33,164 nucleotides of DNA from Prevotella sp. (GTDB lineage: Bacteria > Bacteroidota > Bacteroidia > Bacteroidales > Bacteroidaceae), in the NCBI GenBank assembly GCA_021204565.1, contig JAJPZE010000055.1, forward strand, positions 1 to 33,164. Direction: 5' to 3'. Shown here one piece after another: positions 1 through 21,000 of the stretch. The translations under genes and the position numbers were made by a program. Position 1 is the first letter of the stretch, and every line of letters starts with the position of its first letter. The notes beneath the pieces are model-generated. The model was not told the origin of the DNA. It did not search any database and was given only the letters and a program-made list of their open reading frames with translations.

Positions 1-310
1 AGCCGTAGAACGTGCCTTGCATATTCGTTACCAGGCTTGTGTCCCAGTTAGCAAGTGCGCTAATGTCCGTTAGCCCCGTACAGCCGTAGAACGTGCAGTA
101 AAGCGTCGTTACTTGGCTTGTGTCCCAGTTAGCAAGAGGGGTCAAGTCCGTTAGCCCCGTACAGCCGTAGAACGTGCCTTGCATATTCGTTACCAGGCTT
201 GTGTCCCAGTTAGCAAGAGGGGTCAAGTCCGTTAGCCCCGTACAGCCGTAGAACGTGCCTTGCATATTCGTTACCAGGCTCGTGTCCCAGTTAGCAAGTG
301 CGCTAATGTC
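1..310. repeat. 81-bp coding tandem repeat, about 4 near-identical units, with a degenerate unit extending to ~395
   Basis: AGCCGTAGAACGTGC starts at 1, 82, 163 and 244. Confidence 0.95.
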
Positions 311-898
311 GGTTATCCCCGTCTGATAGAAAGCATAATAAAGCGTCGTACAGCTCGACACATCCCACGTCGAACAGAAGCTAATATCGTGCAACAGCGT
401 ATTCATAAACGCCCTGCCCAAGTTCGTCCACACTCCGCCATACATCGCAACGCGCGACAGCGACGTACACCGGCAGAACATCTCCCAACCGTAAGAACGG
501 TGTGAGGACGACAGCAAACCAACCGCCGCACGGAGATTCGTATTGTCTCCGAAATTAAGCACCACGTCGCCGCACCAGTACGCCCCGATAAGGTTGCTCC
601 CGTCCGCCAACGCCAACGTATCACACGTGCCGCGAACCGTCTCCCCCGCCGCAATAACCTCGTCGCTCCCGTCAACAGTAAGCACGCTCTCGCCGCCGTC
701 CCCGTTCACAAACACATACGCTATCGCCGCCCCCGTCGCCGCCCGCACCGCCGCTAACAACGACGCAACAGCACCCGCATCCGTAGCCACACTCGGCACA
801 AGAGACAAGAGCGTTTCCGCGTCAAACGACAAGCCCTTAATCCGCTCGCAGATGTTCTCCACCGCACCGCGCGTTATATGCGTTATCTTATCCGCCAT
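1..898 (-). CDS. DUF285/BspA-type leucine-rich-repeat protein, probable receptor-binding or surface protein (3' end outside the window; absent from the ORF track)
   Basis: Manual translation from ATG 898 (MADKITHITRGAVENICERIK...) is open to the edge and ends in 27-aa repeats such as LTDLTPLANWDTSLVTNMQGTFYGCTG, matching the WDTSxVTxMxxxFxGC pattern. Confidence 0.88.
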   Translation of the reverse strand, partial: MADKITHITRGAVENICERIKGLSFDAETLLSLVPSVATDAGAVASLLAAVRAATGAAIAYVFVNGDGGESVLTVDGSDEVIAAGETVRGTCDTLALADGSNLIGAYWCGDVVLNFGDNTNLRAAVGLLSSSHRSYGWEMFCRCTSLSRVAMYGGVWTNLGRAFMNTLLHDISFCSTWDVSSCTTLYYAFYQTGITDISALANWDTSLVTNMQGTFYGCTGLTDLTPLANWDTSLVTNMQGTFYGCTGLTDLTPLANWDTSQVTTLYCTFYGCTGLTDISALANWDTSLVTNMQGTFYG

Positions 899-916
899 AA
901 CCAAACATACTAATAA

Positions 917-1444
917 TTATTCAAACATTGCGTCTATCTCGTCCGCCGTTATCTTCTCAAAGTCGCTCTCGGTCAAGAAGTCGGAAAGGTCGTCTTTCTT
1001 CGCGTAATCTTCAAGCTCCGTCTCCTTTGCATAAGCGTCAAGGTCGGTTGTTTTCGCGTAGCTCTCCAACTCCGACTCCTTAGCATAATCGCTCAAATCA
1101 GTACTCTTGGCGTAGTCGGCAAGGGTATCATTCAACGCCTTCGTAACAGCCGCGTCCGCCTCCTCTTTAGTGTAGTAGTCCGAAAGGTCAACGTCAAGTT
1201 TCACCTCGCCTAACTTCTCCCATGCGTTGTTGGCGTAGACGTACTCCGTATAGATATTGTTATCTTCGGTGTTCTCCCCCGCCACAAGGTAAATCTTATT
1301 CGCCTCGCCCGTCTCCGGCAACTCGCTGACCACCGTCGCCAATTCAATACCCGCCACCGCGCTCTGCGCCGCCGCTGTCGCATATGCCTTTACCTTTGTT
1401 ACAAGCTCCTGCGTTCCCGCCATTCTTAAAATCTTTGTTGCCAT
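917..1444 (-). CDS. Short phage fibre/decoration protein with 9-aa LxDYAKxxD repeats
   Basis: VVSELPETGEANKIYLV...EYVYANNAWEKLG small beta-type module, DLSDYYTKEE motif, about six 9-aa repeats, C-terminal ITADEIDAMF. Confidence 0.75.
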   Translation of the reverse strand: MATKILRMAGTQELVTKVKAYATAAAQSAVAGIELATVVSELPETGEANKIYLVAGENTEDNNIYTEYVYANNAWEKLGEVKLDVDLSDYYTKEEADAAVTKALNDTLADYAKSTDLSDYAKESELESYAKTTDLDAYAKETELEDYAKKDDLSDFLTESDFEKITADEIDAMFE

Positions 1445-1472
1445 AGTCGTGTGTTATAATTAAATTAATGAA

Positions 1473-3320
1473 TTAAAACCAAAGTGTAATCTTCGTGCCG
1501 TCGTCGTACCCGTCAAGGTTATAGTCCGCGTCGAACGGCACGACAATATCATAATACCCTATATACGCCTCGCCGCACTTCACGGGCAGGAGTATCGTTC
1601 CCGCGTCCGAAGAGGACTCTCCCGAAAGACGGATAACAGCTTCACTGCTATTTCCCTTTATCGTGAACCGTATGACGCACGTGCCGATGTAGCCCGCGTT
1701 CGCAAGGTCGTCGGGCAAGGTATACGTCTCCGCGTCTACAATACGCCCCTGTATCACTTCCGCGTCGCTCACTCCCGACATATCAAACCACTTGTCCGCA
1801 ATGGAAACAAGGTCTTTGTTCGCCTTACGTAACGAGTTGAGCAAATCGCCGTCGGACAGGTCAATGGTGTTCGTGGTAAAGGTTAAGACGTATTTGATTG
1901 CAATGCTGTTAGCGTCTTTGCCGTATGCAACCTTATACGTGCTTATCTCCGTGCCGTCGACACTGATAAAGGTTACCGCGTAACCGTAGGTCTCCTTTAC
2001 TATCTCGGCAACGAACAACGTCTTATATGTGCCGCTCCCCGTCGCGTCTTTTACTACCGCGCCGGGATACAGCTCCGCCTCGACGAAATCATCAAACGAG
2101 GTGTACGTGTTGTCGTTCTCCGTAGTCGTTTCGTCCTTGTCAAACGCTAACGCTACCTTTATCGCGTCTTCCGTTGCACTCGCGGTAAGGACGGTTAGAT
2201 TGTTCGTTACCCACGCCGCATTGCCCGTCGCCGCTTCCGCTATCATCTCCGCCACCGTTTCTTTGGAGCAAGGATCCTCTTCTACAAAAGCGTTTAGTAT
2301 GGCGTTATCCGCGCTCGTATGCGCTACCGTCCAAGCCGACCACTCTCCAATCTCCCCATCAAGGTCGCACTCCTTTACCTTATAATGCCTTACGTATTGG
2401 TATACGATATTGTCGTTGTGCTTATTACCGTCAATCACACCGTCGTCGTTAGGCATCTCGTGGGTGGTGAAGACCTGCGTTATCAGGTGAATGGAGTCGT
2501 CGGTGAAAACGTCAAGCACACCGACGTTCTTCCATACTGTGCCGGCTACGTTTGGTGAAATAACGACGTACCGCGACGTAACGCCGCTATACGGGATGTC
2601 GGTCAACGTATCCAAATCGGTTATCGCCACCGTTTTCTCCGCCACGAGCGCGTCCGTCTCGTCTTTGGTGTAGAAGTCCGATAAGCTAATGGTCTTTTTC
2701 GTAAGAACAAAACCAACCGCCCCGTCGTCCGTCGTCGTCTCTTTAAGCTCAAAGCTTTGAACGTGTCCTTCGGGCGAAATGGTCGCGAAGTAAACAGCCG
2801 GGCTCGAAGAACTACTGTCGACATATGTAACAAGCAAATTACGGCACCCGTCGCCAAAACACAGGTCGCGGATTATCGCCCCTTGCTTCAATACCGTAGA
2901 GATGAAGTCGTTGAAACTGCCGTACTTCTCAACAATCGCGATATAATCCCCTAACGCTTGATTGTAAAGGGTCTCCGTCGGGTCGAACGTTATCGTCTCT
3001 TCATCGTTGTTCAGCTCGGTCAACCCGTTCACCTGCCACACTGCCGCACAAGAGGCTATCGCCGTGCTTATTGCCTCCGCCACCTCATCCTTAGTATTGT
3101 AATTGGAGAAGTCGATGCCCGCTATCAGTTGCTGAATGAGTTGCAACGCTTCCGTTTTGGTGTAGTAGTTGCCGGCATCGGAAAGCCCGTGTGCGACGAG
3201 TATCTTTCCCGACAACTTGGAGAGGATATACGCCAATCCGTTCTTATCTAACAATTCGTTTGCCGCTTCGATCGCGCTCGTATCGCATTCCGTGCCGGCG
3301 AGGGTTATCTGTGTTGCCAT
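1473..3320 (-). CDS. Acidic fibre-associated structural protein with an internally duplicated domain
   Basis: 615 aa; YYTKTE, YNTKDE and FYTKDE stalk-type motifs; lies in the fibre cluster. Confidence 0.65.
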   Translation of the reverse strand: MATQITLAGTECDTSAIEAANELLDKNGLAYILSKLSGKILVAHGLSDAGNYYTKTEALQLIQQLIAGIDFSNYNTKDEVAEAISTAIASCAAVWQVNGLTELNNDEETITFDPTETLYNQALGDYIAIVEKYGSFNDFISTVLKQGAIIRDLCFGDGCRNLLVTYVDSSSSSPAVYFATISPEGHVQSFELKETTTDDGAVGFVLTKKTISLSDFYTKDETDALVAEKTVAITDLDTLTDIPYSGVTSRYVVISPNVAGTVWKNVGVLDVFTDDSIHLITQVFTTHEMPNDDGVIDGNKHNDNIVYQYVRHYKVKECDLDGEIGEWSAWTVAHTSADNAILNAFVEEDPCSKETVAEMIAEAATGNAAWVTNNLTVLTASATEDAIKVALAFDKDETTTENDNTYTSFDDFVEAELYPGAVVKDATGSGTYKTLFVAEIVKETYGYAVTFISVDGTEISTYKVAYGKDANSIAIKYVLTFTTNTIDLSDGDLLNSLRKANKDLVSIADKWFDMSGVSDAEVIQGRIVDAETYTLPDDLANAGYIGTCVIRFTIKGNSSEAVIRLSGESSSDAGTILLPVKCGEAYIGYYDIVVPFDADYNLDGYDDGTKITLWF

Positions 3321-3335
3321 ATATATAACAATGTA

Positions 3336-4787
3336 TTAAAAGAGTTGGTCAATATCTTCTGCGGAAATCTCGTCGAGACCGTCGGCATTCACGCTCCCCG
3401 ATATTTTCACGGTGTTGCCCGTGCGCTCCGCCGTAAGGTTCAGCGTGTCGGTGTCGGCGGTGTTTATCTCCGTTATCGCGTCGCCGCCCGCCGTACTTGT
3501 AGAGCTACCCGTGCCATCGCCCGCGTCCGTGTTGTCAAACATCTCGTCTATCTCGTCCGCCGTTATCTCTTCAAGATTAAGAGCCTCCGTTATAGCGTCG
3601 CCGTCAATAAGCGTAAAGCTATCCAACAACTCGTCAATCTCCTCTTCGGTTATCAGGGAGTACTCCGACGTGCCGCCGACGCGGTTAAGCACCTTGTCGC
3701 ACCGCACCCAGACATATACGCCTCCGCCGTAGATATACGCCTTGTCCTGCCATAGCCCCGCCTCTTCGCCGGGCGACGACATATACTTATCCACCGTGTC
3801 CCAAAGGGTATAGAACGTGAACACCGGCACAAGCTCCGTGCCGACAATCACCGCACTTCCTACGTATGCGGCAAATATCTTCTTGTCGGTCAGCCACGCT
3901 ATGCCGTCGTAGTTGTCGGGTGCGGTCTCTTCCTTTAATATTCCGCCCGTCTCTTCGAGACTCTGTATCGTGTCGAACCGCATCGTGCCATTGGTTGCCG
4001 AGCCGTCGGCAATGCTCTCTTTCAACTCGTCTAACGCGCTTGTTAGTTGCGGGATATAGCTCCCCGTGATGTTGTTCACGGTCGTGAGCAACGACGTGAT
4101 TTTCGACGTGTTGTTCCCCACGTCCGACTGCAACGTGGTAATATTGGTTGCATTAGTCCCCGCCGTCTCTTTCAACTCGTCTAACGCACTTGTTAGTTGC
4201 GGGATATAGCTCCCCGTGATGTTGTTCACGGTCGTGAGCAACGACGTGATTTTCGACGTGTTGTTCCCCACGTCCGACTGCAACGTGGTAATATTGGTTG
4301 CGTTCGTCCCCAACGTCTCTTGCAAATCGGATACGTTGCTTTGCAGGGTCTTTACCGCCGCTACCGCTTTCTCTTTATACCCTTCTAACGTATCCTTTAA
4401 TTCTTCTACGTCCGAAGAGATGTCGTCTAACGCCTCTGTCGGGTATGCGGTGATGTTGACGGCGTTGCCGGTGTTAATCCATACGGGGCGGTTATAGTCG
4501 TCGGTTTGGCAAACGATTAGCGTGCCGGACGTATCCGCCGCGCTGTCCGTTATTATTGCCCACCAGCCCGGAACGGGACGGGGGTACGACGCTATCAGCG
4601 TATCCATAGAGGTGAACACGCCCTTACCCGCGCCGCGAATGTTCGCCACGTCGGCATAACCGCCTACACGCAAGGTTTTGGCGACATCGGCTTTCCCCTG
4701 CGCATCGATGTCTCTCTTCGCCGTCAGCGTCTTTTCTACAACCAACGAGCCTTGAACTATTACGTCTTCACTTATTATTTTCGTCAT
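3336..4787 (-). CDS. Fibre/stalk protein with coiled coil and triplicated C-terminal acidic motif
   Basis: Beta-rich N-terminus, YPxPxPGWWA module, heptad-like stalk with a 50-aa duplication, ITEEEIDELL / ITADEIDEMF / ISAEDIDQLF near the C-terminus. Confidence 0.7.
   Translation of the reverse strand: MTKIISEDVIVQGSLVVEKTLTAKRDIDAQGKADVAKTLRVGGYADVANIRGAGKGVFTSMDTLIASYPRPVPGWWAIITDSAADTSGTLIVCQTDDYNRPVWINTGNAVNITAYPTEALDDISSDVEELKDTLEGYKEKAVAAVKTLQSNVSDLQETLGTNATNITTLQSDVGNNTSKITSLLTTVNNITGSYIPQLTSALDELKETAGTNATNITTLQSDVGNNTSKITSLLTTVNNITGSYIPQLTSALDELKESIADGSATNGTMRFDTIQSLEETGGILKEETAPDNYDGIAWLTDKKIFAAYVGSAVIVGTELVPVFTFYTLWDTVDKYMSSPGEEAGLWQDKAYIYGGGVYVWVRCDKVLNRVGGTSEYSLITEEEIDELLDSFTLIDGDAITEALNLEEITADEIDEMFDNTDAGDGTGSSTSTAGGDAITEINTADTDTLNLTAERTGNTVKISGSVNADGLDEISAEDIDQLF
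4016..4321. repeat. 150-bp in-frame tandem duplication (2 copies)
   Basis: TTCAACTCGTCTAACGC at 4021 and 4171; the copies differ at only a few positions. Confidence 0.95.
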
Positions 4788-4799
4788 AATGTCTGCTTG

Positions 4800-5447
4800 T
4801 TAATCGGTTAATGATTGTGCCCTCGACTGCAACGCCTGTGCCGTGTCCGCCGCGCCGCGCTCCAATGCCGTCAACGCCGCTATCTCGCACACGCACGCCC
4901 GGTATAAACGGGTCGGGATGTCGATAACCTCGTCCCCGTCCTCACCGGTTACGATGTACGGCAACGGGATATACGCCGCTTCGGCTACGGTTGCGTCTTC
5001 GCTGTCCGACGAGTAAAACTCCAACGCCTTGCCCTGCGCCCGCTGTATGATAAACACCTCAGGACGCTCCGCCGTGCCGCGCAACGCCTTAACAGGGCTT
5101 GACTGCAAGGCGTAACGCGGGTCGCTGTCGAAAGCCGCCGGTGATACGCCGCGCGCCCAGTCGCTCATACGGAACGTTATCAGACGATAGAAGTCGGCGG
5201 GGAGTATAACCGCGCCCGCACCCTGATTGCCCCAAAGAACGCCGCCGGTGAAACTCTTCCCCTCGCCCAACGCTATCACGGGCGCAACGGAGAGTATCGT
5301 CCTTACGCCGTCGGTGATGTTGCGGTGTATTGCCTCGTCGAGCATGCGCGTGTTGATGTCAACGGCTAAAAGGTCGTTGTTGACGCGGTTGCGGTCGAGA
5401 GCGATGCGCACGTCGGGGATAAGCTTGTCGCTAACGGCTGCAATCAT
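4800..5447 (-). CDS. Phage structural protein, putative head-tail adaptor
   Basis: 215 aa; helical N- and C-termini around a beta-rich core (ILPADFYRLITF), as in podovirus adaptors; second gene after the capsid gene; TAATG-coupled to the upstream gene. Confidence 0.55.
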   Translation of the reverse strand: MIAAVSDKLIPDVRIALDRNRVNNDLLAVDINTRMLDEAIHRNITDGVRTILSVAPVIALGEGKSFTGGVLWGNQGAGAVILPADFYRLITFRMSDWARGVSPAAFDSDPRYALQSSPVKALRGTAERPEVFIIQRAQGKALEFYSSDSEDATVAEAAYIPLPYIVTGEDGDEVIDIPTRLYRACVCEIAALTALERGAADTAQALQSRAQSLTD

Positions 5448-6031: not shown

Positions 6032-7591
6032 TTATCCCTGAACCGCTACGCCGGTGTAGAGCTTCCACGTCTCGTCGGAGTAAACTAACATATCGCCCGT
6101 GTTAACGGTCGTGCCGTCGGAAAACGTACACGGATTGAGGAAGTAATAAACGGTGTTCTCGTCCGGGCTGTCCGGCTCGGATGTAACGAACTCGAAGAGT
6201 GCCGCGCCGGTTGACCCTGCCGTGCCAATGGTCGCCGTGTCGTCGTCGCCGCCGTCAACCCAGATATGACAATTGCCTTTAAGTACTAAGGCATCCCAAT
6301 TGATGATACCGCTGCGGCTCGCCTCCGCACCCTCTATACGCTCGTTGAACGAATGCTCCGACGAACGGACATAACGAACAAGACGGTTCTCGCCGATGAT
6401 GGCAAACGAGTTGGAATATCCCAAACGGTCGAGCGTCGGCTCACGCTTGAACTCGAAATCGCCGAACACGGTGTGTATCTTCGTTATGCTCCATCCGAGC
6501 GCGTTGGTGTTCTGCGACACCATCACCTCTTGGTGCTTGCTCCAATCTATCTTCTGTATGGACTCGAGCGCGTTCTTGCCGCAAAGACAGATACCCGTCT
6601 TAGGCACATCCTCGCCCGTGTAATAAATCTTCGCCAAAGCAATGAAACGGTCGTAGTCCCAAGCTTCCGTCTGTTTCACTGCGCGTTTGAACTGCCAGAG
6701 AATACCTTCTGAGAACCATATATACTCCATACCGCCCGTTTTCGGCGCACGCACTTGGAACTTGCCCTTGCGTCCCGCCCAGAGGGAGCGGTTGGTGCGC
6801 ACCTTGTAGTTCGCTATCGCCTGCTCGGCAATAAGTGCCTGCGTGAACGCGGGGTTGTGCTTCTTCTGGTCGGCGAAATAATCGGAAACAACGCTGTTCA
6901 TTATCCTCTTTTGGAGATAAACAACTTCCGACTTCGGCGTAATCAAATCCGGCGCAACATTCTTCTGCGTCTCGTGGCACGCATTACTCATAATAATGCA
7001 CTCCGTCCCCGCAGGTATTTCAGGCATCGTGCAATACTCGTCGGTGGCGTTCGTCTTCGGACCATTCACCGCCCGCACTATCGGATAACCCGTCGTGGCG
7101 TCAAACCCGGTAACGAACAACATCAGATACTTGCCCTGCGTCTCCGTTTGTCCCGTGATGTCGTAGCCGTTCACACCCTTAACCAATAACGTGCCGAACT
7201 CCTGCGGTATACGCGCGTCGGTTGCGCTCAACGGCAACGTCGCTTGTGCCGCGCCGGAAGAAACATCCGCCGTAGTGGTTACTTTCGCTTTCGGCTCGTC
7301 AATCATACTATGCTCCACCTCCGGCGAATTTACCTTAATAGTCTTCGCCACTAATGCCAACTGCATAAGCGGAGTGTCGTCGCTCTGGAACTTAAATAAC
7401 TGTTCGTCTACATCCGGTTCAATGAGGTTGCCCGGTTTGATATCGCCCGTTGCGCTCGCCGCCGCACTGACGGTTGTCGCCTGTCCCGGCACTTGCGTCT
7501 CCAAGCCCGCCGTACCCGTACCCGGCTCGATGTCCCCCTGTTGGAGTTGCACTCTCTCGCCGTCAATCTTGGTTACATTCTCTACTGCCAT
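6032..7591 (-). CDS. Major capsid protein (HK97 fold inferred) with an appended C-terminal module
   Basis: 519 aa; follows a scaffold-like gene and precedes a strong terminator; TPLMQL and YLQK segments resemble Bacteroidales phage capsid proteins. Confidence 0.8.
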   Translation of the reverse strand: MAVENVTKIDGERVQLQQGDIEPGTGTAGLETQVPGQATTVSAAASATGDIKPGNLIEPDVDEQLFKFQSDDTPLMQLALVAKTIKVNSPEVEHSMIDEPKAKVTTTADVSSGAAQATLPLSATDARIPQEFGTLLVKGVNGYDITGQTETQGKYLMLFVTGFDATTGYPIVRAVNGPKTNATDEYCTMPEIPAGTECIIMSNACHETQKNVAPDLITPKSEVVYLQKRIMNSVVSDYFADQKKHNPAFTQALIAEQAIANYKVRTNRSLWAGRKGKFQVRAPKTGGMEYIWFSEGILWQFKRAVKQTEAWDYDRFIALAKIYYTGEDVPKTGICLCGKNALESIQKIDWSKHQEVMVSQNTNALGWSITKIHTVFGDFEFKREPTLDRLGYSNSFAIIGENRLVRYVRSSEHSFNERIEGAEASRSGIINWDALVLKGNCHIWVDGGDDDTATIGTAGSTGAALFEFVTSEPDSPDENTVYYFLNPCTFSDGTTVNTGDMLVYSDETWKLYTGVAVQG

Positions 7592-9097: not shown

Positions 9098-12000
9098 TCA
9101 TTTCTCTTTCCCGATAGCGTCCATCCGCTCGACAAGCTCGCGTTGCAACTCCGTCTGCTCGCGTTGCAAATCCTTGCGGTCTTCATCGTCTGCCGCCTCT
9201 TTCAGCTCTTTCTTTATGTCGTTCAGCATGCGCTCGTACACATCCCTATACCGCTCATAGCGTTTGTATTCGGGGCTGTTGTAAAGATAATTCAGCTTCT
9301 CCGCATATTTCACCGGGTCGGCATCGTTCGCCTTCTCGTATTTCCTTACCGTCTTTGCCGTGTTGTCAAACTCGTTCATATAATCATAAAAGCGGTTCGT
9401 TACGGCGCGGTCGGCGGTGCTTTCGTCGGCGGTTGCATTGAAACGGTTCGCCAACGGCAAGTAACGCGCGTTCATCTCCTTGTCGCCCCAAATAACGTTC
9501 GCGAGGTTGTCAATTTGTTTGGCTAACGGCATAAACGGCACATACGAGTCGAGCAACGTCTCCCATACGGCGGGGTTCGTCCATTTGCCCGTCGGGTTGA
9601 GGAAGCCTTTCTCCGCTTTCCCCTTTATCCCGACAACGTTGTCCCCGCCCGTCGCCTCATTGAGCCAAGCGGAAAAGCGTACAAGCTCCTTGTTGGTATA
9701 AGAATACGCCTTTGTCCATTCCGGCATATCCTTATTGTACTGCGTGTCCTTGTATATCGGCGTGCCGAGATAGTTCGTGTTCTGCGCAATCTGATACAAT
9801 GGTTGCCCCGCAGACGGGACTAACGACATCAGCGGGTCGAAGTCGCCCGGCTTCTGCCCCTGCATAAAGTCAAGCGGCGACAACTCCATAAACATATCGA
9901 GGAGCTGCGTCGGGTCTATCTTCTGCCCCGTAGCTATCGCCGTGCCTATCATCTCCCCCAATCCGTACATGGGTACGAACTCGTGCGGTAACGGGTCTTT
10001 GAGCCACGTACCGTCTCCCGCCCGCGTGATGAAGTTCCAACGGCGCGTGTGTTCGGGAATGTCGAAATAATCCGCTATCCTCTTGTCGTCATCATCATCG
10101 CCACCGCCGCCACCGAACATCGCTGCCGCCATCGCCCTGACCAATGCCGCCGCTATTGCAAGCAAACTTCCGCGAAGCACGCCTTTCGCCATACCCGTTG
10201 CCGCAAGCGTACCCGCCAATGCCGCCGCCTTGCGGGGATTGCGCGCACTATAACGCGCGAGGTTAGCCACGCCCTGCACGCGCGCATTCCAGAAGATATA
10301 CAACGCTCTGCCCGCGCCGGAGACAAAAGCCGCCATATTCCCCGCCCACGTCTGTCCCGTAGCACTAAGGAACTTATCGCCCGCGCCCTTGCGGTTGAAG
10401 TTCACGCTCGCTTCTTTCGCGTCCCAGATAGCGCGCCCTATCGTTCGCCCGCGCTCCCGCGACGTGGCGTATGCCGCAAAACGCATACTCATCTCCGCCG
10501 CTCTGCCCATCTCGCCCGCAATCTCCATCGCGTCCTGTATCTGTTCGCGCGACAGCAGACGGCTCTTGCGTGCCTTGTCAAAGGCGCGTTTCTTTATCTC
10601 CTCTATATCCATCATACGCGCGTACCCCGTCTCGCCGCCGTTGAGCATAAACTCCTTAAACAACCGGTGGGAGTGCTTGCTGTCGTCCAATACGCCGCGA
10701 CGGTACATATCTATCAGGCGCACCATTGCCGGCGGGAAGTACTTCGCCGAGTTCACCGCAAACCGTTCGGCGTACTGCGGACTCTCTTTCACCCACATCA
10801 TAGCGTTGGCGTATTTAAGGTCGCGCATATAGTTGGATACCATAAAGTCGGGGTTCAGAGTGGTGTATATCGCGCTTATCGCCCTGTTTAGTCTCCCCGT
10901 GAAGTTGAATACCGACGAAATGAAACCCGTTGTTTGGCTGTCGGGGTTAGTGCGTCCGTTCACCGCCATTGCCGCACGCGGGTTGCCGTTGACGGTTATC
11001 ATTATCGGCTTGCCGCCGGAATAAACCAACACCTGATGCTGACGCGCGTCTTTCTTATTCACCACGCGGTACGGTATGTCTTTCGCTTGCGCCGCGTTCT
11101 TGTAATGGAACGGGTCGCTCTTCGCCAATCGCTCCATTGTCTCGTTGAACGCCTTCACCGTCTGCGCAGCTTCCTCGCCCGTCGCGTCATCGGGGATGTC
11201 GGGGAACTGCACCTCCCACACGCCCGTCGCGTCATCGTATTTCAACCATACCTTATTCACGCTTATAAGGTCGCTCGGTCGGTTCATCACAAAGTTATAG
11301 AACGGTATTTTGACGAGGCGGTTGCGGTTGCCCTCTATTATTGCCGTCTCCGCCATCTGCTCCATATTGGCAAAGGGGTTGTCGGCTTTGCTCTTCCGTC
11401 CTTTCGCTTTCTTCATTGGCGAGTTATAGGCGTTGGATATGCCGGGCAGATATGCGTACTTCTCTTCCGCCGTCGTCTCGTCGAAGCCGCGCAAAGGAAT
11501 GTAATTCTCATACATTGCCGCTATCTCGTCCGCTTTCTCCCGGCTTAACATCCCGCACCCTACCATCTTGTCGAGTATCGCCTTGTTCGCCGCTTTGGTG
11601 CGCTCCCATAGGTCGGTCGTGTCGTGCGCCGCCTCATAATCGCTCACCATCGTCCGCGCTTTGGCTTCCGCAGCGGATACGTCCTCTTCGCCGGTAAGTC
11701 CCGTCAAGCCCGCATAGTCGCGCTTACGTGCCTCCTCCCGGAAATCATCCAACGTCTTTTCCCCGTTCGGGTTCGCCGCTATGTATTCGTCGTACTTCCT
11801 TTGCGCATCGCGCTCCGCCATTAAAGCGTTACGCTCCAAGCCGTGCTTCGCCATCATATAATCGATAAGCTCCTCACGCTCTTTCTCGTTATGCGCTAAG
11901 GTATATACCGCACGGTATAACGGACGGAACACGATACGCCGCATAGCGTTTATCTCCGCCTCGTTCACGCTCGACAAACGGTTCTCGCCCAAGTACGGGT

Positions 12001-15000
12001 TCTCATTGTCCGGCACGTCCTCTATATGCTCGAACTCCTTGCCGTATATCGACTTCATCGCCTCTGCTAAGGACGCGGTGTAATCATACACCGCCTCGCG
12101 CGCCTGATACATCCCGCTCGCCACTACACGCTCGTACCGCTGACGCGCCGTCTCCTGCCTGTCCTTACGGCGGAAACGCGTCTGTTCGTCTTCTTTGTCC
12201 GTGTCGTGGTCGAGCGAGTTGAACGTATCCTCTTCGTTAAGCAATTCTTGCTCCTTTTCGCGCATACGCTCCAAACGCTCGCTCTTCGCCATATCTTCGG
12301 CACGCTCCAATACGCTCCCCTCTTTGAGTTTCTTCTCGCTCCGCCATAACAGATACTGTACGTCGCGGGGCGACAAATCCAAACGGAAACCGAGCTTGCG
12401 CAACGCCTCGCGCACCGCGCTGACTACCCGTCCCCACCACGTGGGGAGATTGTCATCCTCCGCCGTCTCCGCTAAATACTCGTCCGTCGCTATGTCTATA
12501 CGCCCGTTATATTTCTCTTTCGCTTCGGCACGCAACCGCTCCCGTATGTCTTCGGGCAACAAACCGAATATGTTCTCCATCGCCTTGCGGAAGTTCTTCT
12601 CGCCGAACAACGCCCGCAAACCCTTATGCCCTTTCAGCTCGTGCAACACCGTCCGCGCCGCGTCATCCGCATCGGTAACGTTCGGCATATAGATATATAC
12701 CTTGCCCGTCTTAGGGTCGTACCAACCCTTTACCGTGTTCTTCCCTCTCCGGCGGTCGCCCTCTATGCGCCGCCGCGCCGCCGCGTTCGTTACCTCGTCG
12801 AACGAGCCCACCGTCTCCACCTTGCTGCCCAAACGCTCTTCCAATCCGTGAATAACCTGCGACACCGCCGACGCCACACTGCCCGGAGATGCCGGCTCTT
12901 CCGCTTCTTCCTCTTCACTATCTTCTATGCGGTAAGAGTTATCGTCATCGCCTGCGTCATCATCGTCTTCCTCCGCACGTCTGATATCGTTAATATCCAC
13001 GCCTTGTATACCGGCATCCATTTCCGCGTACTTCTTCTCCTTTTCTTCCAGCTCCGTCTTCATCTTCTTTGTGTAATCATCAAGGCGTTTCTTGGCTTCG
13101 GCGAGTTTGTCGGCATCTTCAAATGGTTTCCCCTCGCGCTGTTTCAATGTAGCCAAGTCTTTCTTGACGGTTTCCAGACGGTCGGCATACGTCTGTTGCT
13201 CCCCACGCAACCTCTTGCCCGTCATCACGTTATCGAGGATGTCCTCTATCGCGCCTTTCACGAAGCCCCGACTGCCGGGATTAAAGTCCTTTATCGCCAA
13301 TTCGGGGCAGGAATACGTTACGACGCGCGTAACAACCGTTTGCAAGCTGTTGTCTTTGTAGCCCGTTGTTTTCTTAATACGTGTGTTTATCTCAAAGTCA
13401 AAGCCCCCGATATTAACCCGTATCGTTTCCTTCCTCTCGCGGTCTCCGTACGAACGGCGTATTTCATCGACTATTCCATTTATCTTTTCGTTGTAGCTCT
13501 TGAAGAAATCGCCCGCTTTTTTCCCTCCGGGAGTTACCTTTTGCCCGTCGATTGTTATCTCGCCCGTTTTGTCTTTGCCGTCAACGGCTTTCAGCGCATC
13601 GGACAGCTCCGCAAGGCGTTTCTCGCAAGCGGCTATTGCCCGCTCCTGTTTGGGAATGCTGTTGTGAACGTATATCTGGTCGTTCTCGTGCGCCCTGCGT
13701 TTCGCTTCATATTTCGTTACGTCGCGTTCCGCCTGATTCTTCAACATGGCGTACTCGCTGCCCGACAGTTGCGCTACGGTGTCGCCGAACACATCCTCGT
13801 CCTCTTCCATTACGCGGTTCTCCATAGCGTTCTTCAACAGCTCTTTGCCCCTCATAATGCTTTCAGCGATTGCACCTTTCGTCTTTAACCGTTGGTAGGC
13901 GGTAACGTCAAGAGAATCTTCCATACCGAAACGCAGCACACGTACCGGTATGCCCCACTTCTTATGCAGGTTGCCTTGCCGGAGAATACGCCCGTTGCGC
14001 TGAGTGTAGTCCATCGGTCGGTTCGGAGCGTCCATATGGATAAGCGTGTGTAACCGTTCCTGCATATTCACGCCCGTACCCAATGTCGCCGTACTGCCCA
14101 AGACGACACGTATTTGACCGGCGTTCACCTTTTCGAATATATCCGTCTTCTTCTCCGGTGTCAAACCGGAGCGAATTACTGCCACTTGCTCCGCCGGCAC
14201 ACCCGCATCAATCAACTTGCGCCGTATATCTTCGTACAGATTAAACCCGCTGCTTTTGTTCTGATAGTTATCGGCGAATACCGCCACCGTACCTTGATAC
14301 GCTTTCGAGTCTTCCAGACTACGCAAAATCTGCCTTACCGCCTCGTTCGTTTTGCTGTCCGGCTCGTCAGGAGCGTCATCGAGTACCAAGCGGGTGTCTA
14401 TCGCGGCGGCTTTCGCTATGCCGTACATCACCAGCGGAATGTGGCTGTTTTTTTTCTTCTCATCTCTCGACATATGCTCGAACGCCGCCAGTTGCTCACG
14501 GACGGTTTTCATCACACTGCGGAACGATGGAGTCTGTTTAACGTAGATGTCGGTCGCCTTACCGCCCTCCATTTCCGGGATTTGCTCTTGCAGGTCGGGG
14601 ATGTCCCGCGACAGCACGGTATCCGCAATCTCACTCCATATACGCACCAGCTCCGGCAAGTTGAAATAACCTGCGAAACGGTTATTTTCCTTAAACGCCC
14701 CCGACGTAGTGAACTCTAACATCTGTTGTATGCTGCCGAAATTGCGCACAAAGTCGTCGAAGTATTGAATACTGTACTCTTTCATCGTATTGGCGGGGAG
14801 CAGGTAGCGCATAAACGTCCATATCTCCGCCGCAGTGTTGCTTATCGGCGTGCCGGTAGAGAAGATAACATTCTTGCCCGACGACCTGTCCATCACCGCT
14901 TGACATTTAAGATACAATCCCTGCGCTTTCTTGGAGAACGACGAGTCAACACCTCTCACGCCGCGTTGCATAGCGGTGGCGAAACCCAAGTGTTTGTATT

Positions 15001-18000
15001 CGTGCGCCTCGTCAATAAGAAGAGCATCGATGCCCATATCGTCGAAGTCGGCTACGTCATCCACCTTGCGGTCGAGCATCCGCCGCGCCGCCACTTCCGC
15101 ATTCCCGCGCGTCTTGGCTTCACGCTTGGCATCGGTCTTTTTTTTCTTCTTCTTCTGTTCCGCGTCAAAGTCCTTCCGTCCTGCCTTGCTCAGAATATCA
15201 ATCTCCTTCAATACCGACTTTTCTATCCGCGCTATATCCCGCTTGTCCATTTTCGCCGCGCGCATCATTTCCATGACGTGCACGGCTTCTTCAATCTTGC
15301 TCTGTATATAGTCTTGTTGGCGTTTCTCGCTGTCGGGAATGGTGTTGAATACGCTTTGGGGGATTATTATCAGATCCCAATCGTTATATTTTATCTTGGC
15401 ATAAAATGCTTTGCGTTTCTCTTCGGAGTTGTTGCCTTTGTCAAGCGTCAGAATTTTTGCATTAGGGTATAGGCGTTTCGCGCTCTCTACAATCTGCCCC
15501 GTTGTGGCGTTCTGTACAACGAGCATAGGTTTGCGGGCAGTACCAAGACGACGCATCTCCATTGCCGCAGATATAAGCGTGAATGTCTTGCCACTGCCCA
15601 CCTCGTGAGCCAATAAAGTGTTGCGCATCGTACAGCGTATCGCCGCCGCCGCCTGATGGGGACGCAGTTTCACCGCGTGCGATGCACCGTCAAAATGTTC
15701 CGGCGCAAACTCCGCCGGCGTTTCTTCCGGAACATAATTGTTGAAACTATCGTTATACCGCCGCTCCATCGCCTTTGCCATGTCGGGGTCCGTTAGCATC
15801 TTTTGTCGCGCCCACTCCTTAAAGCTGTCTCTAATTTCTTCAATGCGGGAGGCGCATTCGGCGGTGGCGGTCGGGTCGAAGAATGTAAAACCTTTTGTTG
15901 CCTTCGAAACGGTAATGGTCTTGTTCTGCATTGCGGCGGCTATCAGCTCCGTACCATATATAACCTTATCGCACATCTCGCTCCTTACGGCAAGTTGCCG
16001 GTTCTTTTCCGTCGCTATGGCAAGCGGACGGCGGGAGCCCCTGTTATTATAATCGGATGTTGGGTAGACTATCCACGTGCCTCCGGCATTATACACCTCT
16101 ACGTCAATATCGGTTTTTTCCTTAAAGAAGTCAACGTATAGTTGCGGGTCAATATACGATGAGCCAAGCGAAAACTCTATCAGATGAGCGGGAATGTCCG
16201 GCGGGATGACTTTTTGCAACTCTCGTATGTTCTTATCATAGCGACCGTCCTCGTTGTTCTCCCGTGCCTGTCGCAACTTCTCCCGTACGTTGCCGCTCAG
16301 GTATCGAAAGCCAACCTCTACCTCCCTGCTGACGGGGTCCTCGAAACCAAGACCGCTGTCCAAAATCGCGGACTTAACGGCTTCTTCACTTTTGCCTAAA
16401 TGGTCGGCAATATAAGGCAGGTCTATGCGCCCGAACTTATAAATGCTTGTTATAACACCCTCGCGCTCGTATTTCGGTTTGGGGTTGCTTGCCTTCTCTA
16501 CAACGCGCTTGGTGAATATATCTCCTTTCGTAAACGTCTGCAAGCGGTTGCCGTCTTTATCGTTGTATTCTTTCAACGACTCCAATGCCGCAACAGACGA
16601 ATAATCTATGTCGTCCTTCAAGAATGATATTGCCGGGTTCTTTTGGAAATGACCATAGGTATCAACAAATTCATCATACGCGGCGTTGAGCTTGTCGAGC
16701 AACGGTTGCAACCCTTTGTCATCCGCGTGTTCCGCCTGATACGCCAATACGTCATCAACCGCTTTCTTTATCGCCGCATAAGCCTCAAAACACTCTCTCT
16801 TTGTGTGTCCCTTTACTTTGTTGGCGTTCGCTTGAAGCGGTATTGCCACGCCCAAAGACGCAATACACAACTCGCCCTTGTCGTTGACAAACATACTGCC
16901 TTCTCTTACGCCCTTGCCCAACTCTTCGTAAACGGCAGACGCGGCTTCTTCCGTATCCGCCGCCGCAAGAGTGCCGAGCTCCATATTAGAGAAAGACGCC
17001 GCCCACTTTTTAAGAAGTTCTTCCTGCGATATTCCCTTTTCGGGATATAGCCCTTTGCTCGCCGGGCGGTAAGTGTCCCCTTTCTCCACACCAAAGTACA
17101 TTTTGCCGCCCATATTCTCCGGGTGAGAAGCGAAGTAGCTGTTGTATGTCAGTTGCAGGGGGCGCGTCTTCGTCTCCACTTTCCCTCTGCTGTCCGTTTC
17201 CTCATACTCATACACCACCGTCCGCTCGGATATTGTGCCGTTTACGTCAATCGCCGCAGGAGACTTCTGCCTGTTCGTTCGTTTGCGGACAACAATAATG
17301 TCGCTCGTTGCCGACGTGCCGCCGAACGTCTTGTTGTTCATCCTAAACGCACCGATAAAGTCTGCATTACCCTCGCTCGTTACCCATTTCCGAAGCGCCA
17401 CCGAGTTGTCGAGAGTGCCGCTTGACGTAATGAAGATGCCGATGCCGCCGTCGCGCAACTTGCGTATGTTCTTCGCTATGCAGAAGTCGTGGATGTTGCC
17501 GAAGCGGGTCGACAAATCTTTATCGCCCGAATCATCAAACACGTGAAGTCCCGTAACGAACGGCACATTGGTGATTGCAAGGTCAACGCTCCCGTTACGC
17601 ACCCGCGTATTTTGGAAACCTTGTATGTTTACCGTAGCGTCGGGATAAAGCAATGACAATATCTGCCCTGCGGTCGGGTCAATCTCCACCGCCTGAATAT
17701 TGCTGTTCCCGCTAATCTCCGACGGCATCAAACCTAAAATATTGCCTATGCCCGCGCTTCCTTCAAGAATATTGCCGCCCTTAAAACCTAATGCCTTTGC
17801 AACATCCCACATCGCATCAATAACGCTCGCGGGGGTGTAATACGCGCTGTTGATGCTCATTGCCGCCGCCTCAAAGCCGTCATCGCCGAGCAACTCTTTT
17901 AACTCATCACGATAGGGGTTCTTCGCCTCCATCCAACCGGGCTCTTTGAACGCCTTGCCCAAGCCGCCCCAACCGCTGAACTTACGCAGTACAGCCATCT

Positions 18001-21000
18001 GGCTTGGCGTCGCTTTCTTGCCTTTTTCGGTAAGTTCTTGCGCCAGCCGGATGGCTGCGATGTTTGCTTTAATACGGGCATCCACGCCCGTAGGAGCGCA
18101 ATCAGTGCCGCGCTCCACGTGGTTGTTCCCGGAGTTCTTTACGAGTTCCAGATGTCCGCCGGTGTCCAGCACGCCTTGCGGTACTCCTCCATCTCCTGCT
18201 CCTTCTCCTCCTCCGTCATCTCCTCGACGGTCTTGCCCAGACGTTTCGCGCCCTCTTCCAGTATCGACTGTTTCGTTATTACTTTCGGGCGACAATCCGC
18301 CGGTGCGAACGACATTAGTTCTTCCAGTGTCATCGTTTTCTTGATTGTTAATAGGTTTCGGGGCAATATTACCCGGTTGCGAAGTTACATTACTTTCCCC
18401 GCTCGCTGCACTTTCGGCAGGCTTGTTTGTGCTTTCTTGTGAATTTTTAAGAACGCTAACACTTTTTACCACCTGCCGGGCGAAGTCGTGCGCCGCTTGC
18501 TCGCTGCGTATCATATACCCGCCCGCATTTTTATCGTACCAGCCTACTTGCCCTCTGCCTTTATTCCTTGCAAGCGCGTCGGCTTTCTTCTTCTGCTCGT
18601 CGGTCAGGGGCTTGTTGAACTTTACGAGGTATGTGTCAAGCGTCCTGCCGTTCTTGTTCGTGTACGGCTTTTTCTCCACCGTATAACCGAGCTTCTTTGC
18701 CGTCTCCGCTTGCGCCACTTGCTCCGCCACTTGCTCCGCCTGTTGCTCCGCCTGTTGCTCCGCCTGTTGCTCCGCCACCTTGTCCGCCGCCGTCTGCAAT
18801 ACGTCTTTATGGTCTTTGTCGAAGTTGGTAACGTCAAACTTGCTCACCTCTTCGTATGGTGTCATCTGCTTGTCTATTCCCGCCTCTATCATCTCCGGCA
18901 TATCGCGCGCGCCGTTGTACATCGCTTTCAGATAAGGGCGCACCTTATCGCCTAACGCGGCAATAACATCTTTCGCGAAGTCGATAAACTTCGGTATGTT
19001 GCGCTCTAATTTGCCCATCGCATACTCCGCCATAAGCGTAAAGAGTTCCGGGTCGATGCCCAAATTGAGATGGTACAGCTTCTCGATGATGCGCTTGCGC
19101 AGCTCTTCCATCCGCTCATCGCTCACGATATACTTGTGTTCCGGCTCTTCCTTACTCTCTTCCTTTATTTCCTCTTTGCCGGTGTCCTTTGTTTCTTCTT
19201 TTGTTTCTTCTTTTGTTCCCGTTTTCTTTTCTTCCGTAGCTACGCCGGTTGTCCCCTCCGGCGCATTTTCCGGCGTATTATCCGCATTTGTGTTTGTTGT
19301 ATCGGGATTTGTGTTTGCAGGAGTCTCGGGCGTTGTCGTTTGCGCCGCTCTTCTTTGCGGGGTCTCGGCGACGGCTTGCCAGAAGTCCGCCTTTGCTTGT
19401 GCCGCCGCGAGGGCGCGCTCGGCATCAGCAACCGCAGTCTCCGCGTCCGCCACCGCCTCGCTCGCCTTGTTTCGGTTGGCTATCATCTCCACCGGCGTTG
19501 CGCCTACCGGCGAAGACGTTACTTCTTCTAACTTCTTCTTCGCCTTAGTCAGCGTCCCTTTCGCCGCTGTCAATGTCTTTTTTGCCGCGTTTGATGCCTC
19601 GCGCGCACTGCCCGCCATTGAGTTGGCTATATTCACGGCAAAACCGGCATCGCCGCCGCTCTGCTCCGTCAGCGCGTCAAATGCAACGTCGGGACTTGGC
19701 GCACTCTCGTATATCGGGTTGCCGTCCGCGTCCGTCTTTAATTGACTTAACGCGCTCTGCGGCTGTTGTGGTTGTTGCTGTGGCTGTTGCTGTTGCTCCG
19801 TCTGTGGTTGTGCCGTACTTGCCGGTGCTGCGGTTGTCGGTTGTTGCTGCTCTTCGGGGATTACCGCTTTCGCAAACTCTTCTTTGGTAAAGGAATAAGG
19901 TTTCGGTATCTCGTCGTCCGTATGAATGACAAACGTATCGCCGGTGTCCTGCACTATCGTGCCGCTAAGCTTGTTCCCGTCTTTATCTTGAAATGTTACC
20001 TTGTCCCCGACCTTGTATTCCTTCGGCTGTGGTTGTTGCTGTTGCTGCGGCTGCTCCGTCTGTTGCGTCTGCCCTTGTTGCTCTTGCGTCTGCTCCGTTT
20101 GTTGCTCACTGCTCTCGCGAATAATCGCGGCAAAATCATCGCGGATAGCTTGCGCCGCTTTCGCCATCTCCGACTGCTTGAACGCCTCCGCATCGTTTAT
20201 CTCCTCATCTATCGACGTGATGTCCCCCGCCGATACCATCGTTACCGCTCCCGTCTGTGCGTCCGCAACGCACACCGTGTTGGAAGACGCGCCGATATTC
20301 ACCGTGCCGTCCTCGTTCTTAACAAGCATGCCGCTGACAACATACGCGGCGGAACCATCGCGTTTTAGCGTAACACGTTGCATTTTGTTGAGCGACTTCC
20401 CTTTCTCGTCTACAAGCGTCAAACGGTCGTACATCTGCCCTACATTCCGCGCCATCTGCTCCGCCGTGTCGTTCGCGCTCGTCTGCATACCCTTGCACAC
20501 CTCCGAAGCGTGTACGTATTTCACCGCCGCCTCGTATAAGTCCCAAGAGAGCGACGGATTCGAGATTATCTCGTTTTTTATCTGCCGTAGCGTCCGCACC
20601 GGGTCAGCGTCAAGGTCGTCTATCGTTTGTTGTCCGAGTTTCTTTACCGCTTCAGCCGCCGTCTGATTATATGTTTGCGCCGCCGCACGCATACTCTCCT
20701 TGTTGCCGCTGTCGTAAAAGTCATAACCGGTATTAAACGCATTCTGTGCGCGGGTTGTCTCATCCGTTAGCGCAAGACCCATCTGCCCGACAGTCATCGT
20801 GGCGTTGCACGCTTCCGCCCCGCGCATCTGCATTGACTTCTGCACATATTGCAACATTGCAGCTTTCTGCTGTTGGGATAAGGTCTTGTCCCGGAACATA
20901 CCGAGCAACGCCGCCTGTGATGCCGCGCTATCCTTATTATCTACCGCTTGTTTGAATTTCTCCCATACATCCGCCCTATTCTCCCCGAACGCTTGCATAC

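Follow-up and report, generated by a model that had tools for sequence, protein, structure and literature searches.

A candidate plug-and-socket joint between phage fibre proteins in a Prevotella contig

A Prevotella sp. contig of 33,164 nucleotides (NCBI GenBank assembly GCA_021204565.1, contig JAJPZE010000055.1, positions 1 to 33,164 of the forward strand; here called the window) carries phage fibre genes whose products bear two short terminal motifs, an acidic one at the C-terminus, the plug, and a basic one at the N-terminus, the socket. The plug-socket pair is real and widespread, and it is most likely a peptide-peptide joint of fibre proteins that is undescribed in open-licence PMC and bioRxiv main texts. 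We consider it probable that plug and socket together form a chainable end-to-end joint of phage fibre subunits. The proposal of an earlier note on this DNA, that acidic C-terminal plugs meet N-terminal sockets, is backed by the terminal position of the motifs, their co-occurrence, the polarity of gene order and a deletion control in AlphaFold2 (AF2) structure prediction. The window is the entire 33-kb contig, and the assembly is 66% complete, with 1.65 Mb in 269 contigs. A look-up of sequencing runs, RNA included, listed none for window 1-4800.

Plug and socket motifs in the window

The genes in question follow a head-tail adaptor gene on the minus strand in the order 3336-4787, 1473-3320 and 917-1444 (their products are called 3336, 1473 and 917 below), and then comes a DUF285 repeat gene cut at the contig end. 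The consensus of both ends was taken from homologues of 917, several of which bear both motifs; these start with [FY]LDxxGLxxhWxK[IL]K and finish with ITNEEIDxLF. The plug consensus is accordingly an acidic, C-terminal ITxxEIDxLF and the socket consensus an N-terminal [FY]LDxxGLxxhWxKIK. Scoring profiles were built without any window sequence, and 1572 host N-termini and 1572 host C-termini served as controls.

Protein 3336 (3336..4787, minus strand) is a 483-aa fibre or hub protein with a putative N-terminal virion-anchor region, a coiled coil and a C-terminal tail with three plugs. These are plug 1, ITEEEIDELL (3624..3653, minus strand; residues 379-388), at 23.4 bits, a score as high as which was found in 0 of the 1572 host C-termini; plug 2, ITADEIDEMF (3537..3566, minus strand; residues 408-417; 24.7 bits); and the C-terminal plug 3, ISAEDIDQLF (3339..3368, minus strand; residues 474-483), with 16.9 bits and again 0 of 1572 host C-termini. 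A possible degenerate plug, INTADTDTL (3441..3467, minus strand; residues 441-449), is uncertain as a fourth copy, because 12 of the 1572 host C-termini reach its 7.5 bits. The plug of 917 is ITADEIDAMF (923..952, minus strand; residues 165-174; 22.8 bits). A slightly widened regular expression for the plug returned four window sites and no others among all six-frame open reading frames (n = 22,376) of the 269-contig assembly. The three acidic copies ending 3336 and the one ending 917, as described in the earlier note, were thus all recovered in their places and nowhere else in the assembly.

N-terminal sockets had been proposed for all three downstream genes. Two of the three hold, since those of 1473 and 917 score above all 1572 host controls and that of the leucine-rich-repeat (LRR) protein does not. 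The socket of 1473 (3204..3254, minus strand; residues 23-39) scores 25.1 bits, with 0 of 1572 host N-termini as high, and begins at residue 23, some way in from the extreme N-terminus. That of 917 (1388..1432, minus strand; residues 5-19) is divergent at 13.0 bits, again with 0 of 1572 host N-termini as high. The third gene (2..898, minus strand) encodes a DUF285/PARCEL leucine-rich-repeat protein, a probable tip (PF03382, E 1.6e-34; TIGR02167). Its N-terminus, HITRGAVENICERIK, scores -12.6 bits as a socket, a value that 607 of the 1572 host N-termini equal or exceed; it fails with a narrower profile too, and it lacks the near-invariant Gly and the aromatic residue of the socket. The same stretch (window 836-880) scores 8.5 bits as a plug. 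A homologue search with LRR residues 1-150 returned only the protein itself or near-identical copies. The cassette is incomplete because this gene is cut at the contig end, and a search of the other contigs of the 66%-complete assembly found neither a continuation of it nor a further socket gene.

Protein 1473 (1473..3320, minus strand; 615 aa) is a socket-only protein and a likely tip, with no plug by profile and no Pfam or PHROG match. Protein 917 (917..1444, minus strand; 175 aa), with a socket and a plug, is a candidate extender and has a small beta domain (residues 36-82) that is common in phage fibres and is shared with MSTV1 and cr131_1; by eye, the matching MSTV1 protein has neither motif at its ends. 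The best BFVD matches of the 917 model include head-fibre and tail-fibre proteins. Neither 917 nor 3336 has a significant PDB sequence match, and a homologue search with the N-terminal part of 3336 found near-identical copies only. The coiled coil of 3336 contains an exact 50-aa duplication (residues 159-208 and 209-258; window 4014-4313), of which a database variant, P0038, carries one copy, so that the length of the 3336 stalk differs between strains.

Position, co-occurrence and gene order across phages

IMG/VR was scanned for each motif alone with no positional demand, which gave at least 140 and at least 113 loci (about 520 and about 270 estimated, with strict patterns). Among the matches listed, sockets start 2-9 codons past a start codon in 122 of 123 distinct cases, and plugs (77 distinct) end within 10 residues of the stop in 51 of the 69 with a stop in view. 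Neighbour tests were carried out on the first 80 loci of each scan with full flanks; 148 of these 160 hit a called gene and fell into 55 clusters. In clusters selected by the plug, 16 of 18 terminal plugs but 3 of 16 internal matches had a socket gene in their locus (Fisher p 7e-5); of those selected by the socket, 22 of 26 had a terminal plug. Across phage clusters, both the co-occurrence of the motifs and their terminal position hold.

Gene order is strongly polar. Where a cluster has both motifs (33 clusters), the gene after a plug gene is a socket gene 41 times out of 54; the same count in 5000 gene-order shuffles was 8.7±2.4 (maximum 18). A larger set (215 loci, 91 clusters) gave 147 of 174 versus 24.7±4.2 in shuffles, in counts that are partly circular because junction-selected loci are included and the profiles were widened by adjacency. 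The first element was plug-only in 80 of these 91 clusters and the last socket-only in 80 of 91; the commonest layout is plug / socket+plug / socket, and 41 of 82 complete cassettes have two plugs and two sockets. This polarity supports the proposed roles of 917, which has both motifs, as a two-ended extender and of the socket-only 1473 as a tip. In addition, a scan of species genomes yielded 82 loci. A plug was found in the same or the preceding gene in 65 of the 72 called ones, and of the 10 further loci missed by gene calling, 8 were genuine and 2 were due to chance.

The cassettes stand in tail modules of myo-, sipho- and podoviruses; in myo- and siphoviruses they come after baseplate or tail genes (Baseplate_J, Mu gp48 or Prophage_tail), and the same gene order is present in Streptococcus phage Javan112. 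Pfam domains of the socket proteins comprise Gp10_C, Phage_fiber_rpt, PTR, head-fibre, BppL_N, GDSL and DUF285 (27 of 148 proteins with any match); a socket protein with DUF285 occurs at locus L170. Titles of the species-genome loci name Bacteroidota, Bacillota, Actinomycetota, Fibrobacter, Treponema, Flexilinea and Methanobrevibacter. These loci are mostly from metagenome bins, and their hosts are bin-level assignments. An uncultured Methanobrevibacter bin (L283) has a canonical cassette, 84P / S423P / S159 (P, plug; S, socket; numbers as in the locus layout), which suggests that the joint crosses the host boundary between bacteria and archaea, if the binning is right.

Both motifs consist of a hydrophobic residue, an N-cap and an amphipathic helix, with opposite charge: over 72 pairs, the core charge averages -2.3 for the acidic plugs and +1.1 for the basic sockets. 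A test for an order code on 50 plug / socket+plug / socket cassettes showed Glu at plug position 12 in 25 of 50 first junctions versus 1 of 50 second junctions, and Leu at socket position 10 in 24 of 50 versus 4 of 50. Leave-one-out testing told the plugs of the two junctions apart in 47 of 50 (null maximum 37 in 300 permutations) and the sockets in 41 of 50 (null maximum 41). Within the junction class these two columns, position 12 of the plug and position 10 of the socket, vary together (z 4.7 among 209 column pairs tested, descent uncorrected). Such a code could limit the self-chaining of two-ended extenders.

A second apparent terminal code was also seen, in which C-termini carry hydrophobic-x-GG-x-A and N-termini I-x-x-R-x-D-T-x-x-x-W. 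It coexists with the plug-socket pair in the fibre operons of L597, L598 and L603, and the end of gp24 and the starts of gp25 and gp26 in crAss001 (L609) resemble it.

The proposed joint, a fork at 3336 and the alternatives

The AF2 monomer of 917 was predicted with an alignment of 27 rows; for the control, residues 1-30 were removed and the alignment was re-made. Each end of the full model forms a short strand and a helix, with two-residue strands at 4-5 and 163-164. The pLDDT score (predicted local distance difference test) is 81-89 for the N-terminal end and 84-88 for the C-terminal one (last 15 residues), and the middle is poorly predicted. After deletion of residues 1-30 the C-terminal strand was gone and pLDDT there was 64-73, with the beta domain unchanged and the plug columns filled to much the same extent in the two alignments. 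In many structural alignments of the full model, both ends fall on compact helical bundles, which is consistent with the ends of 917 being packed together. On the basis of equal strand length, the deletion control and the structural alignments joining both ends, we infer that the strand before the plug helix would pair with the strand before the socket helix. A complex prediction with three copies each of 1473 residues 19-56 and 3336 residues 454-483 scored 0.16 against a mark of 0.32, with controls not folded, and is counted neither way. In a fold search with the 917 model, PDB entries reached neither E 0.001 nor Z ≥5, a result that implies neither difference nor novelty.

In the mechanism that we propose, a C-terminal plug and an N-terminal socket would clip separately encoded fibre subunits end to end, in gene order, the joint being a small one made of two strands and of helix on helix. 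Each subunit is probably a trimer, so that three plugs of one would meet three sockets of the next. Protein 3336 would be fixed to the virion by its N-terminal anchor near the adaptor, and 1473 and 917 would hang from its plugs. Tips would bear variable host- or surface-binding domains, exchangeable through recombination at gene boundaries. Because 1473 has no plug, the socket of 917 needs another donor, and 3336 is the sole upstream one; 917 would therefore sit on another plug of 3336, which makes a fork. One arm would be 1473, and the other would be 917 together with a partner on its own plug, by gene order the LRR adhesin with its divergent N-terminus. The third plug of 3336 would serve a further copy, or a gene past the contig end. 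A comparable layout, 365PP / 179P / S256 / S220P / S202, is found at L607; the second socket there, like that in the window, lacks an immediately upstream plug. A fork at 3336 into at least two different arms has, in our estimate, an even chance. The three-way hub of the earlier note is plausible to the extent that the orphan socket of 917 and the L607 layout speak for it, and is weakened by the finding that more plugs do not go with more socket or tip genes.

The strongest alternative accepts the joint as real and assigns the three plugs of 3336 to avidity or copy number rather than to three different arms: either a single chain wraps its three plugs around one socket trimer, or one fibre is displayed in several copies. 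We regard this as possible, if distinctly short of even. It draws on tandem-plug proteins found elsewhere. When the plug profile was searched against 1.84 billion representatives, 17 matches were obtained, nine of them in one small-protein family with a conserved N-terminal peptide and tandem plugs. Members of this family are P0041, P0044, P0045, P0048, P0050-P0052, P0054 and P0057, at loci L597-L605. These scaffolds have about 70-200 aa and a variable number of plugs (none to 6 by profile in the 9 contigs), and a single socket gene lies two to three genes downstream of theirs; their phages are about 200 kb where the contig is long (two of 9 contigs). Since tandem plugs stand beside a single socket gene, they can serve copy number or avidity, and the single-socket scaffolds speak for several copies of the same fibre and not for a variety of tips. 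That only two sockets in the window pass the profile fits this alternative as well. It is opposed by the missing adjacent upstream plug for the 917 socket and the plugless 1473, which make 3336 serve at least two proteins unless 917 self-chains, and by the same orphan socket with extra upstream plugs at L607.

A number of findings weigh against the joint as drawn, or against the fork. Multi-plug proteins occur in only 5 of the 91 clusters and are all double, the common form being a linear chain; a DNA scan for double plugs covered 121 loci and gave 0 with a genuine one. At L147 and L332 there is one plug more than there are sockets, with no extra socket gene, which also favours avidity or copy number. 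The tandem-plug scaffolds come with one socket gene each in the 5 of 9 contigs that reach one, two of which extend 10 kb downstream. Within the window, the LRR N-terminus fails as a socket, and the order code assigns no partners, all four plugs being weakly first-junction-like. The net charges of paired plug and socket are uncorrelated (rho 0.02). The AF2 support is one monomer model from the 27-row alignment, with a re-made control alignment and a within-chain contact. The counts from 91 clusters share the circularity described above, and the clusters are not wholly independent by descent. A natural plug-socket fusion was sought and not found, with a stop separating the motifs in 54 of 54 genuine junctions; six stop-free matches, considered as fusions, proved on inspection to be chance. 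The closest relatives of the phage (G051, G112 and L001) have no plug-socket cassette in the sequence examined, G112 and G067 stopping at contig edges. Finally, the evidence for the joint is wholly computational.

It seems unlikely that proteins with both a socket and a plug, 917 among them, form head-to-tail polymers, or self-close, to give fibres of variable length between anchor and tip: both ends are on one chain, AF2 packs the 917 plug on its own socket and the motifs are alike across junctions, but first- and second-junction motifs differ systematically, as if order were encoded, although shared descent could do likewise. We find it rather improbable that the motifs do not bind each other and are separate trimerisation or capping elements, or signals for a shared chaperone or processing, brought together by a recombined junction-spanning DNA block, for although plug, stop, short spacer and socket fit in about 70 bases, movable as one block, and the absence of a fusion agrees with this, conservation is at the amino-acid level despite very different spacers, GC contents and host groups, chains open with plug-only and close with socket-only genes, and the opposite charges and the AF2 deletion effect indicate mutual contact.

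If the end-to-end joint is real, two short profiles would flag fibre subunits among hypothetical genes, together with their order and the tip. This matters because most receptor-binding proteins (RBPs) of uncultured gut phages lack annotation; among the 148 cassette proteins, 121 have no Pfam match. Host-recognition modules would become directly testable, the shuffling of fibre genes between unrelated phages would be explained, and a very small natural connector for protein assemblies would be at hand. In its widest form, the proposal is a portable connector common to gut phages whose hosts span many bacterial phyla and the methanogens; order would be encoded at the level of residues, 3336 would be a viral scaffoldin with three different adhesin arms, and multi-plug scaffolds would tune the number of fibres per virion. 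This version falls a little short of an even chance in our judgement; if true, fibre architecture could be read from sequence.

The phage, its relatives and known systems

Long genes on the minus strand of the window encode a terminase large subunit, a 4634-aa DarB-like polyvalent protein, a SU10-type major capsid protein (6032..7591, minus strand; PF17236, E 4.3e-6) and the SU10-type head-tail adaptor (4800..5447, minus strand; PF24175, E 1.4e-5). The capsid protein is 25-27% identical to those of three Bacteroides phages and, in a search of 201 genomes, is matched in 20, its own counted, and on this identity and distribution the phage is likely a podovirus-type one with a Bacteroidales host; it is probably temperate. 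The DarB-like protein (window 9098-23002) has helicase, LPD14 and LPD38 domains and a methyltransferase-family PHROG match. The C-terminus of the capsid protein (window 6032-6200) has an extension of about 50 aa loosely like the 917 beta domain (22% over 49 aa, E 1.4, not significant), and a similar extension is present on the capsid proteins of the closest relatives.

In these relatives, the gene after the adaptor begins with a region homologous to the N-terminus of 3336. Residues 11-269 of 3336 match the N-terminus of the fibre at the same slot in G051 and G112 (27-29%; E 1.5e-13 and 7e-11), and the N-terminus of 3336 would accordingly anchor it to the virion. The slot in G051 is occupied by one 2711-aa fibre without a socket that matches parts of 3336 and 1473, including residues 228-361 of the latter (28%, E 8e-10). 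A more distant relative, L475, has 382P / S441P / S152 in the same region. Given the single fibre of G051, with no cassette after it, and the cassette of L475, the window genes look like a fibre delivered in pieces, the joint being optional within the lineage. At L467 (G051:C7), the 2711-aa fibre is followed by an apparent diversity-generating retroelement with a 447-aa reverse-transcriptase-like gene, as judged by eye.

The earlier note knew of no description of this pairing, and none was found in open-licence PMC and bioRxiv main texts (without supplements; motif strings included), nor is the pair described in the accessible part of one preprint (bioRxiv 10.64898/2026.05.24.727406). Pfam and NCBIfam have no model for either motif, and 74+74 motif stretches had no docking-domain, Dockerin or Cohesin match. 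For these motifs, PHROGs offer only whole-protein families of unknown function. Searches of either motif profile against PDB sequences gave nothing significant, short motifs having little power.

Several known systems resemble parts of the proposal. In docking domains of polyketide synthases (PKS) and COM domains of non-ribosomal peptide synthetases (NRPS), a short acidic helix that ends one subunit contacts a basic helix at the start of the next, in the order of the genes; a few residues set partner preference, and the contacts are transient ones in enzyme assembly lines. The likeness lies in terminal acidic and basic helices in gene order, whereas the carriers here are phage fibre proteins without a docking-domain Pfam match. 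In the long tail fibre of T4 (gp34-gp35-gp36-gp37) and in lactococcal BppU-BppL, separately encoded trimeric segments are joined C- to N-terminus in gene order, as proposed here, but their joints are lineage-specific domains. In cellulosomes, repeated acceptors on flexible linkers of a scaffoldin recruit proteins that share a terminal tag; the dockerin consists of duplicated calcium-binding repeats and the cohesin is a beta-sandwich of about 140 aa. Tandem-plug scaffolds are the closest parallel to scaffoldin, and tandem plugs do exist in them and in 3336, with the number of plugs not tracking that of socket genes. The comparison with cohesin-dockerin made in the earlier note is useful as an analogy and does not extend to sequence: plug and socket have 10 and 17 residues, with no cohesin beta-sandwich and no duplicated calcium-binding repeat, and the four window proteins have no match to Dockerin or Cohesin Pfam models at E 0.1.

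PhiCrAss001, a gut Bacteroidales podovirus, has multi-protein fibres (gp21-gp26) with poorly resolved outer tail fibres, and the part of that report consulted names no such joint for them (PMC10172136). In 7QOF, two short chains of the head fibre weakly resemble the 917 beta domain (chain l, 38 aa, Foldseek E 0.42, probability 0.84; chain j, Z 3.6), and none of nine crAss001 proteins scanned has a plug or a socket.

The closest of the systems compared are branched RBPs of Klebsiella and E. coli phages. Those of the Klebsiella podophages KP32/K11/KP34 and of G7C, K1-5 and CBA120, as far as the accessible parts of the reports describe them, have a T4gp10-like branching domain and a conserved N-terminal peptide, and in KP32 deletion of a 29-aa peptide abolishes growth on the host of the second RBP (PMC13352976, PMC6872550). 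As in this type, a short N-terminal peptide of a separate downstream RBP would dock on a virion-anchored upstream protein, allowing tip exchange and branching. Homology of 3336 to same-slot fibres suggests the N-terminal anchor of the first fibre protein, and the sockets of 1473 and 917, known here by motif and set beside KP32 by description, supply the conserved N-terminal peptide downstream. Protein 3336 has no Pfam, PHROG or PDB-sequence match to T4 gp10, no HHpred-type search or folding of 3336 having been made. The KP32/G7C type, as described in those reports, uses an internal folded T4gp10-like domain as acceptor, with a peptide that varies by phage group, whereas here the acceptor would be a 10-residue C-terminal peptide and a single motif pair recurs in myo-, sipho- and podoviruses from many host groups. 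Moreover, unlike in that type, two-ended proteins would extend chains and acceptors occur in tandem arrays. By analogy rather than by demonstrated membership, the plug-socket pair thus appears to work like the anchor-branched RBPs, with a chainable joint.

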